Below are positions 24,208-26,927 of a stretch of 64,000 nt of DNA, in pieces. The translations under genes were made by a program, and so were the position numbers. The stretch comes from Malacoraja senta. Lineage: Eukaryota. Each line of letters opens with the position of its first letter. The first letter of the stretch is position 1. The notes beneath the pieces are model-generated. The model saw nothing but the letters and a program-made list of their open reading frames with translations, had not been told where the DNA came from and made no database searches. The DNA is taken from positions 14,200,001 through 14,264,000 of the forward strand of contig CM075988.1 of assembly GCA_038087875.1 (NCBI GenBank). The letters run 5' to 3'.

Positions 24208-26927
24208 AGAAACATAGAAACATAGAAACATAGAAAGTAGGTGCGAGAGTAGACCACCAGGCCCATCGAGCCCGCACCGCCACTCGCTCATGGCTGAACA
24301 CTAAACAGACACCCTTACCCACAAACAGTAGACACAAGACACAGAACACAAGACACTACCCTCCCCTTTATATCGCTATCACCCCTCTCCACCCCAAGAA
24401 CCGCGTGATCTCCTGGGGGAGGCAAAAAAACGGATAAAAACCCAGGTCCAATTCGGGAAAAAAATCCGGGAAATTCCTCTCCGACCCCAATCCAGGCGAT
24501 CGACACTTGTCCAGGAGATCACTCAGGTCTTACTATACTAACCATACCTAGGTCCATATCCCTGCCCTCTCCCCGTAGCCCCTTATCCCCTTGGCAGCTA
24601 AAAAACCATCTATTTTAGACTTAAATATATTTAATGTTTCTGCTTCCACTGCTCCCTGGGGCAGTGAATTCCATAAATTAACCACCCTCTGGGTGAAGAA
24701 GTTCTTCCTCGTCTCAGTTTTAAAAGAGCCCCCTCTTATTCTACAACTATGTCCCCTAGTTCTAGTTTCCCCGATCATTGGGAACATCCTCGGTGCATCC
24801 ACCCGATCAAGGCCCCTCACGATCTTATATGTTTCAATGAGATCGCCTCTCATTCTTCTAAACTCCAAAGAGTAGAGTTCCAGCCTACTTAACCTTTCCT
24901 CATATGTCAATCCCCTCATTGCAGGAATTAATCTTGTAAACCTTCGCTGCACTGCCTCCAGGGCCAGTACATCCTTTCTTAAGTATGGACCCCAGAACTG
25001 TACACAGTATTCCAAATGTGGTCTCACTAATACTGTGCACAGCTGCAGCAAGACCTCCGTGTTTTTATACTCAATCCCCCTAGCAATAAAGGCCAAAACT
25101 CCATTGGCCTTCCTGATTGCTTGCTGCACCTGCATACTAACTTTTAGTGATTCATGTACTACTACCCCTAGATCCCTTTGCGTTGCATTACAACGCAGCT
25201 CCACCTCATTTAGAAAATAACTTGCCCTATCATTTTTTTTCCCAAAGTGAATGACTTCACATTTATTAGTATTAAATTTCATCTGCCAAGTTGTTGCCCA
25301 CTCACCTAGCTTATCTATATCCTTTTGCAGACTCTTCCTATCCTCCTCATCCCCTACTTTTCCTCCCATTTTTGTATCGTCCGCAAATTTTGATATATTA
25401 CACTTGGTTCCCTCCTCCAAATCATTTATATAAATTGTGAACAACTGGGGTCCCAGCACCGACCCTTGCGGAACCCCGCTAGTTACCGGTTGCCATCCCG
25501 AGTATGAACCATTTATCCCCACTCTCTGCTTCCTATTTGTTAGCCAATCCTCTACCCATGCTAATATATTACCCCCAATCCCATAATTTTTTATTTTTAG
25601 CAATAGTCTCTTATGTGGCACCTTGTCAAAAGCCTTTTGGAAGTCCAAGTATACCACATCCACCGGTTCCCCTTTATCCACCCGGGTTGTTACTTCCTCA
25701 AAGAATTCGAGCAGATTCGTTAAACAGGACTTCCCCTTCACAAAACCATGCTGGTTCTGTCCGATGAAGTCATGTTTATCCAAGTGCCCCGTTAGTGTTT
25801 CTTTAATAATTGTCTCTAACATTTTACCCACCACCGATGTTAGACTAACCGGTCTATAGTTACCCGCCTTCTGTTTACTTCCTTTTTTAAATATAGGTGT
25901 TACATTGGCCATTTTCCAATCCACTGGGACCGTTCCTGCCTCCAGGGAGTTTTGGAAAATTATCACCAATGCATCCACAATCCCCACCGCTATCTCCCTC
26001 AAGACCCTTGGATGTAATCCATCAGGCCCAGGGGATTTATCCTCCTTCAGTCTCATTAATTTCCCTAATACCACCTCCTTGGTGATCTTAATAGTATTTA
26101 GCTCCTCCATTCCTACCGCCCCCTGTTTATCCAGCGTTGGAATATTTTTTGTGTCTTCTATGGTGAAGACTGATACAAAATACTCGTTTAATGCCTTTGC
26201 CATTTCCATGTTCCCCACCAACAACTCTCCAGTCTCACCCTCCAATGGACCAACGTTCACCTTAGCCACCCTTTTTCTTTTTATATAGCTATAAAAACTC
26301 TTACTATTAGTTTTTATGTTGTTCGCTAAATTCCTTTCATAGTCTATTTTCCCCGTCTTAATTAATCTCTTAGTTATTTTTTGCTGACCTTTAAATGCTT
26401 CCCAATCCTCTACCCTCCCACTATCTCTAGCTACCTTATATGCCCTTGCCTTCAGCCGAATACTATCCTTTATAGTTTTACTGAGCCATGGCTGACTGTT
26501 CTTTCCCTTACCCCTTTTTTTCTTCATAGGAATAAATTTTTCTTGAAGGTTATACAGTAGATCCTTAAACGTACACCACTGCTCATGTACCGTCTTATTC
26601 TTGAGTCTGCTATCCCAGTCAACTTTGATCAGCTCAGTCCTCATACCTTCATAATCCCCTTTATTTAGACTAAGTACCCTAGCCTGAGTTTCAACCTGCT
26701 CTCCTTCTATTTGAATATGGAATTCGACCATATTGTGGTCACTTGTTCCCAACGAGTCCCTAACTATGACATTTTTAATTAATCCTGCTTCATTACACAG
26801 GACCAGATCCAAGATTGCCTCCCTCCTTGTCGGTTCTGTGACATACTGTTCTAGGAACCCGTCTCTAATACATTCTATAAACTATTCCTCTAGTCTACCC
26901 TGCCCAGTTTGGTTTGCCCAATTAATT
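24208..26927 (-). mobile_element. CR1-clade LINE, 5'-truncated within the endonuclease domain, apparently young, with long structured 3' UTR
   Basis: Uninterrupted ORF 24548-26812, one upstream in-frame TAG at 26882-26884, and a perfect (TTTCTATG)n tail seen as agaaacatagaaacatagaaacatagaaa at 24208-24236. Confidence 0.97.
24548..26812 (-). CDS. CR1 ORF2 (C-terminal part of APE endonuclease plus reverse transcriptase), 754 codons open
   Basis: SDHN, KSPGPDG, YRPVSLTS, QHGFVKGKSC, DFQKAFDKV, QGSVLGP, FADDTK, RPHLEY, TRGH, FFTQRVVNLWNSLP. Confidence 0.93.
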   Translation of the reverse strand: MDLVLCNEAGLIKNVIVRDSLGTSDHNMVEFHIQIEGEQVETQARVLSLNKGDYEGMRTELIKVDWDSRLKNKTVHEQWCTFKDLLYNLQEKFIPMKKKRGKGKNSQPWLSKTIKDSIRLKARAYKVARDSGRVEDWEAFKGQQKITKRLIKTGKIDYERNLANNIKTNSKSFYSYIKRKRVAKVNVGPLEGETGELLVGNMEMAKALNEYFVSVFTIEDTKNIPTLDKQGAVGMEELNTIKITKEVVLGKLMRLKEDKSPGPDGLHPRVLREIAVGIVDALVIIFQNSLEAGTVPVDWKMANVTPIFKKGSKQKAGNYRPVSLTSVVGKMLETIIKETLTGHLDKHDFIGQNQHGFVKGKSCLTNLLEFFEEVTTRVDKGEPVDVVYLDFQKAFDKVPHKRLLLKIKNYGIGGNILAWVEDWLTNRKQRVGINGSYSGWQPVTSGVPQGSVLGPQLFTIYINDLEEGTKCNISKFADDTKMGGKVGDEEDRKSLQKDIDKLGEWATTWQMKFNTNKCEVIHFGKKNDRASYFLNEVELRCNATQRDLGVVVHESLKVSMQVQQAIRKANGVLAFIARGIEYKNTEVLLQLCTVLVRPHLEYCVQFWGPYLRKDVLALEAVQRRFTRLIPAMRGLTYEERLSRLELYSLEFRRMRGDLIETYKIVRGLDRVDAPRMFPMIGETRTRGHSCRIRGGSFKTETRKNFFTQRVVNLWNSLPQGAVEAETLNIFKSKIDGFLAAKGIRGYGERAGIWT

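Follow-up and report, generated by a model that had tools for sequence, protein, structure and literature searches.

The window, a 64,000-nt stretch of Malacoraja senta DNA (GCA_038087875.1, contig CM075988.1, positions 14,200,001 to 14,264,000), carries on its minus strand a 5′-truncated CR1 retroelement, whose second open reading frame (ORF2) is followed by a 3′ untranslated region (UTR) of 340 nt. Within this UTR lies a structured module of 118 nt (24522–24405), starting 25 nt past the ORF2 stop codon and lying 197 nt from the end of the element, which, judging by its predicted architecture, is most likely a form of the element for nuclear expression (ENE). ORF2 matches the Pfam family RVT_1 with an E-value of 2.5e-33 and shares 99% identity with a full-length ORF2 of 958 aa, after which the nearest named proteins are CR1 proteins of ray, shark, bird and turtle, with identities of 58% to a Mobula protein and about 44–50% to full-length bird and turtle CR1 proteins. 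Since this reverse transcriptase is closest to vertebrate CR1 proteins, and a CR1-type 3′ hairpin and an octamer microsatellite are both present, the host element is assigned to CR1. A terminal hairpin with an octamer repeat is known from the 3′ ends of amniote CR1 elements (PMC4316615, in excerpt). Hundreds of contigs in runs X1 and X10 end at 24208–24212, marking the 3′ end of the family. No relatives of the window ORF2 were found in viral contigs, and blastn against plasmids and phages gave no match. The preliminary description of this DNA had put the UTR at about 340 nt, against about 95 nt for the CR1 copy near 57141, and had noted that an internal A-tract is missing; the measured lengths are 340 nt and, for that copy near 57140, about 97 nt, no run of four or more A occurs anywhere in the 340-nt UTR, and the element ends in the octamer repeat.

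The 118 nt quoted in the preliminary description were located where it had placed them, and every part that it had named was recovered in the minimum free energy (MFE) fold, including the 12-bp closing stem, the GAGG/CCUC, CGGAU/AUCCG and CCC/GGG helices and the U6/U5 loop. The fold has −44.3 kcal/mol (z −2.48, with 4 of 200 shuffles as low), and the U tracts are predicted to be 82–99% unpaired. However, one hairpin (P2), which stands ahead of the U-loop arm, had been overlooked, and with it the module is predicted to be a three-way junction, as shown in Table 1. The duplex of the closing stem P1 reaches −24.0 kcal/mol, a value matched by none of 1000 shuffles, and the two-loop arm by itself is unremarkable (z −0.58, with 57 of 200 shuffles as low), so that the z-score of the whole module rests mostly on the closing stem. 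Beneath the upper loop, G-C pairs come two pairs down, after a U-A and an A-U pair, and those of the lower loop lie below the AA/UU pairs and a bulged G; G-C pairs beside an ENE loop serve A-minor contacts (PMC7583470, in excerpt).

Table 1. Features of the CR1 element and of the structured module in its 3′ UTR (window positions).
Feature	Position	Strand	Basis or remark
CR1 ORF2, open frame of 777 codons	24548..26881	(-)	5′-truncated copy; CR1 similarity begins near 26870
3′ UTR, 340 nt	24208..24547	(-)	Sequence; family 3′ end marked by contig ends
Ordinary CR1 terminal hairpin (24288-24232) and TTTCTATG octamer repeat	24208..24288	(-)	Also at the ends of other CR1 copies in the window
UAUAAA hexamer (24372-24367) and GU-rich tract (24355-24321)	24321..24372	(-)	Candidate internal poly(A) signal, from sequence
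P1 closing stem, 5′ arm	24511..24522	(-)	12 bp with 24416-24405; predicted fold
P2 hairpin GAUC-G-CC/GG-GGUC	24483..24501	(-)	Paired bases identical in the bird-like loci; 6/6 pairs invariant
P3 lower stem, 5′ arm	24476..24482	(-)	Partner 24422-24416; two pairs compensated relative to the bird-like loci
Lower loop, 5′ side AAUUUC	24470..24475	(-)	AA can pair with the final UU on the 3′ side, with a G bulged out
P4 middle stem, 5′ arm	24464..24469	(-)	Partner 24435-24430; 5 bp, rising to 6 bp with the alternative base at 24430
Upper loop, 5′ U6 tract	24458..24463	(-)	Sequence, fold, descriptor
P5 CCC/GGG stem and apical loop	24441..24457	(-)	Predicted fold
Upper loop, 3′ U5 tract, then AUCC as in the KSHV PAN ENE	24436..24440	(-)	Sequence, descriptor
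Lower loop, 3′ side: U tract, bulged G	24423..24430	(-)	Sequence
P1 closing stem, 3′ arm	24405..24416	(-)	Predicted fold

The window was scanned over its 64 kb and on both strands with a generic ENE descriptor, composed after the element had been seen, of two runs of at least five U between GC-containing inner and outer helices. The single match was the upper U6/U5 loop, and one of 60 simulated windows contained a match at Markov order 2 and again one of 60 at order 5. The same loop resembles the ENE of the polyadenylated nuclear (PAN) RNA from KSHV (Kaposi's sarcoma-associated herpesvirus), which likewise has a U-rich internal loop between short GC-rich helices, and the 3′ strand, GGUUUUUAUCC, is identical to that of PAN over 11 nt (PAN sequence from the supplement of PMC10855403); the ENE-like architecture that had been claimed for the element is supported, and its upper loop is PAN-like. 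However, the upper loop of the module is U6/U5 and has beneath it both another loop and a three-way junction, and the AU after the U5 tract, which forms a bulge in PAN (PMC13541005, in excerpt), can pair here with an AU of the 5′ strand. Poly(A) binding by the PAN ENE has been shown by crystal structure, whereas the CR1 module is a prediction from sequence. At the gathering level, Rfam gave no family for the window region or for the related loci L121–L124 described below, with best E-values of 0.17 or worse.

The module was traced through its CR1 family in sequencing runs. At least half of the sampled words of 24200–24700 were present in 14 of 24 listed runs, which carry eight organism codes besides one uncoded, and the variation within the family was read from four runs, three of DNA and one of RNA. 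Within these four runs, the sole listed substitution in the module that is common to several of them is at 24430, where the other base accounts for 41% (X1), 87% (X10) and 43% (X13) of the depth and adds a sixth P4 pair, C-G; the base of the window itself makes up about 59% of the depth in run X1. Two further differences in the module are both confined to one contig of low depth. The spacer behind the module (24283–24403) has four variable sites, numbers too small for a test. Being present in several coded organisms and near-unchanged among them, the module is family-wide: it belongs to a young CR1 family, as had been proposed for this copy, and is no quirk of the window copy. A second copy of the module was not found in the window by a one-sequence nhmmer search.

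Outside the family, a strict pattern gave matches in no viral contigs, five metagenome stretches and four stretches of bacterial genomes, and four of these nine stretches (L121–L124) are true relatives, forming one multicopy repeat family. The other five (L125–L129) were dropped as chance matches, with a bacterial context, no upstream GATCGCC and model scores of at most 14 bits, and 120 loci matching a loose pattern in viral contigs, also taken as chance, served as the control set. GATCGCC stands upstream in only 4 of 128 pattern sites, which are L121–L124, and these four agree with the window in exact register at nine bases outside the pattern (7e-6 by a composition estimate). L121 and L122 also hold CR1 fragments at other places, whose identity to stork proteins is 77% and 88%, respectively, compared with 57–64% to turtle proteins and about 40%, in the case of L121, to proteins of shark type; as the fragments are nearest to stork proteins, the four loci are likely bird host DNA.

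The same three-way junction is predicted for three of the four bird-like loci, and L122, in which the closing stem is damaged, folds partly otherwise. Against these loci, two pairs of P3 are changed on both sides, from G-C to A-U, and 98.7% of the pairing cells hold in register, compared with 44–67% when the sequences are slid. The closing stems are unrelated in sequence, with only 7 of 20 and 6 of 20 bases identical to the window and with bulged arms in the bird-like form, yet they pair with their own partners at −16.1 to −20.5 kcal/mol, whereas arms combined across the families reach only −7.6 and −8.7 kcal/mol; for the native closing-stem duplexes of window and bird-like loci together, 0 to 10 of 1000 shuffles were as low. 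Both lower U tracts are retained in all five sequences, with three U opposite four to seven in the window and four opposite four to six in the bird-like form. The compensated pairs, together with a closing stem that is replaced but still paired, point to selection on the fold, and as the bird-like loci are without the upper loop, the conserved unit is the three-way junction with one U-loop. The structured module in the 3′ UTR of CR1 is real and family-wide, and it is probably ancient. The deep conservation that had been suggested earlier holds for the hairpin, P3, the lower U-loop and the closing stem in this distant lineage, but not for the upper loop. Similar motifs may occur in the CR1 3′ UTRs of amphibians and reptiles as well.

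Behind the motif, the multicopy repeat of the bird-like loci continues in tandem units of about 174 nt. Each unit contains a further U-loop arm but no hairpin, and the units are more degraded the farther they lie from the motif (L122 at about 1680–1735, L123 at about 244–299 and L121 at 1683–1738, in sense), and it is the second unit of L121 and L123 (U7 / U5-GG-CCUUCC) that resembles the lower stem of MALAT1 most closely. In addition, L121, L122 and L124 have in common a GC-rich sequence about 700 nt upstream of the motif, which is 77–82% identical among them and has no similarity to CR1 ORF2.

A comparison with the double ENEs of plants and fungi, such as that of rice TWIFB1, and with the Evade ENE revealed two U-rich loops with a short duplex between them, a PAN-like upper domain over a bulged lower domain, and a position after the transposon ORF as common features. 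However, the CR1 module sits in a vertebrate element without long terminal repeats (non-LTR) that ends in a microsatellite, and it has an extra conserved hairpin. TWIFB1 carries AAA before and AA after its lower 3′ U tract (PMC10855403), whereas the lower 3′ U tract of the module has no flanking adenosines. The adenosine triad or pocket motif of double ENEs (PMC13541005, in excerpt) is absent from the module, in which the lower 3′ strand is free of A runs and only the 5′ side has an AA, and in place of the lower-domain bulge of 3 or 4 nt (PMC7583470, in excerpt) there is a single bulged G. Two U-rich loops with a short duplex were found in the CR1 family only and not in L121–L124. The description of the module as a double ENE therefore finds no support in the form given, and a TWIFB1-type double ENE was rejected for want of the triad and the bulge and for a conserved unit with one loop.

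The lower stem is of the type seen in the MALAT1 and MEN-beta ENEs (GGAAGG / U-tract-G(G)-CCUU), and the likeness is closest in the bird-like loci, which read GGAAGG...UUUUU-G-CCUUCC, and in the second tandem unit; the MALAT1 and MEN-beta stems compared were taken from the supplement of PMC10855403 and from PMC6633196 (in excerpt). The U tracts here differ in having no C/G interruption. A MALAT1-type ENE was rejected, as there is no encoded A tract, no tRNA-like part and no mascRNA-like Rfam match. Another structured cis element of the same 3′ UTR is the terminal stem-loop of CR1 and L2 elements that is recognised by ORF2, but it is separate from the module, which lies about 120 nt upstream of it. 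In the amniote CR1 alignment, the ORF2/UTR boundary where the module sits has been cut away, and motif searches in the supplement gave unrelated flanks and no instance of the module (PMC4316615, in excerpt).

From its architecture, the module is read as an ENE-type clamp for poly(A), with a probability of roughly 55%. This reading is supported by opposed U tracts between GC-rich helices, which have been kept while the helices changed, by the PAN-identical 3′ strand of the upper loop and by the MALAT1- and MEN-beta-like lower stem of the bird-like form. The module also follows closely on the ORF in a retroelement without introns, a location that it has in common with the Evade and PSIV ENEs (PMC13541005, in excerpt). 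Deletion of the Evade ENE lowers both RNA level and mobility (PMC12501189, in excerpt). In the proposed mechanism, the closing stem would open into a three-way junction with the conserved hairpin and with a purine/pyrimidine stem under a U-rich loop, and U-A-U triples would form between the U-rich loops and the poly(A) tail of the RNA. Clamping the tail would slow the deadenylation of the intronless CR1 RNA and so guard it against decay. The lower unit may be the older part, above which the CR1 family would have stacked the PAN-like U6/U5 loop, which could add up to five triples. The conserved hairpin, which ENE models leave unexplained, could serve to orient the arm or as a protein-binding site.

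Because the element encodes no A tract, the tail would have to come from cleavage and polyadenylation. It could be added at a genomic signal downstream of the terminal repeat, on read-through RNA and at least 200 nt away, or else at the UAUAAA/GU-rich site about 35–85 nt downstream of the module. UAUAAA is a variant poly(A) signal. The GU-rich tract begins 11 nt past it; both lie in the interval from the module to the terminal hairpin and are arranged like a poly(A) signal. No variant of the hexamer was listed in the four runs, and the base preceding it is variable. Tailing at this internal site would yield a stable mRNA without the 3′ hairpin needed for retrotransposition. In RNA run X15, three contigs at depth 3–4 span 24339–24566, and one of them ends at 24339, 28 nt beyond UAUAAA, with no loose end among those listed; this end was discounted as a sign of transcription or of a poly(A) site, as it is one contig of one study and may be DNA.

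Several observations weigh against the ENE reading. CR1 copies terminate in the octamer repeat and not in poly(A). UTRs at the remaining CR1 3′ ends of the window are short and lack the module, and even the best-preserved of these ends, with an ORF2 71% identical, is module-free, so that these CR1 elements have spread without it. The antisense strand of the module folds about equally well (z −3.35), and folding energy therefore favours neither strand. The lower loop of the window module has only three U on its 5′ side, and P3 contains an A-C mismatch at one position in the window. The upper U6/U5 loop, which is the part most like an ENE, gives way to a variable plain stem-loop in the bird-like loci, and a remnant of CR1 ORF2 is missing from their sequence directly upstream of the motif, so that its CR1 origin is putative. 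The CR1 family is too homogeneous to display covariation, only two independent lineages were compared, and the shuffle control gave 23 of 500, a figure that is not a probability, and L121–L124 are one family. Furthermore, stickleback retroviruses are the sole animal entry in a transposon screen (PMC7583470, in excerpt); as no CR1 is listed there, CR1 ends of the module type were either unsearched or scored too low.

In the main rival reading, which we consider rather unlikely, the conserved RNA structure has a job other than poly(A) binding, serving as a protein-binding three-way junction in ribonucleoprotein assembly, export or translation, with its U tracts U-U paired in a continuous rod. 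The P2 hairpin and the junction are the most strictly conserved part, and no such hairpin occurs in the ENEs of the cited papers. With AA/UU paired, the lower loop becomes a symmetric 4×4 pyrimidine loop, and U-U pairing has been described for free ENE loops (PMC6633196, in excerpt). The lack of an A tail on CR1 copies also fits such a role, which nevertheless leaves the second loop with its PAN-identical 3′ strand and the MALAT1-like lower stem unexplained. Protein binding and poly(A) binding are compatible, and the invariant hairpin favours some such role in addition to the clamp.

There is little probability that the module is a passenger, that is, a piece of an older structured RNA or of a short interspersed nuclear element (SINE) caught in the UTR and functionless for CR1, with the U6/U5 loop arising by slippage in a U run. 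The module-free spread of related CR1 elements with short UTRs would agree with this, as would the bird-like motif in its multicopy repeat with decaying tandem units and no ORF2 upstream. However, a passenger would not be expected to have compensated pairs or a closing stem wholly replaced yet paired; no Rfam family is matched, and the module is near-invariant across runs against the four variable sites of the spacer, in numbers too small to test. Finally, a feature of the DNA, such as a local inverted duplication or a tiny inverted-repeat transposon whose terminal repeats would be the 12-bp stem, is very improbable, for although the inverted repeat matches perfectly over its 12 bp and the antisense folds equally well, there is no target-site duplication around the module and no second copy within the window, and the relatives keep the inside while swapping the arms for unrelated bulged ones, the opposite of what such transposons do.

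For the ENE reading, the wider history can be put in two forms. That the module is an ancient CR1-borne ENE, with no link to MALAT1, is held tentatively, at somewhat less than even odds. The fuller proposal is improbable: a poly(A)-clamping module that predates the shark–bird split would ride on some CR1 lineages, would have been doubled in the window family and would share its ancestry with the triple helices of MALAT1 and MEN-beta, and dispersed ENEs seeded by a long interspersed nuclear element (LINE) would be numerous in vertebrate genomes.

No report of an ENE or triple helix in CR1 or other non-LTR elements was found in the openly accessible literature searched; subscription papers lay outside that scope, so absence from print is not established. 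In the excerpts available (PMC13541005, PMC7583470), the reviews list ENEs in viral RNAs, MALAT1/MEN-beta, one fish retrovirus and transposons of plants, fungi and slime mould, and they name no element of the non-LTR class. PMC5135761 (in excerpt) concerns hairpins of L1 and Alu, and the available excerpts of PMC5753468, PMC4176376 and PMC6609765 contain nothing on the CR1 module. If the ENE reading is true, the device would extend to CR1, which is among the most abundant classes of vertebrate repeats, and would bear on the 3′ processing and stabilisation of LINE RNAs that end in a microsatellite. Every new insertion could then provide some host transcript with a stability element. A junction hairpin is not described for ENEs in the cited papers.

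Proteins of CR1 ORF2 type also occur under bacterial names on short contigs (P0030 and P0081), which are probably host contamination of those assemblies. Elsewhere in the window, a second long CR1 lies at 3503–5561 on the plus strand; its ORF2 match ends at residue 643 and the terminal hairpin follows directly, which suggests an internal deletion. Directly after a CR1 fragment, the stretch 10990–11350 (plus strand) has the character of a long inverted repeat, with ends alike in reverse, and is possibly a small DNA transposon. A tRNA-headed SINE family, which may resemble the V-domain SINEs of sharks, has many copies in the window, at 27318–27640 and about ten further places.
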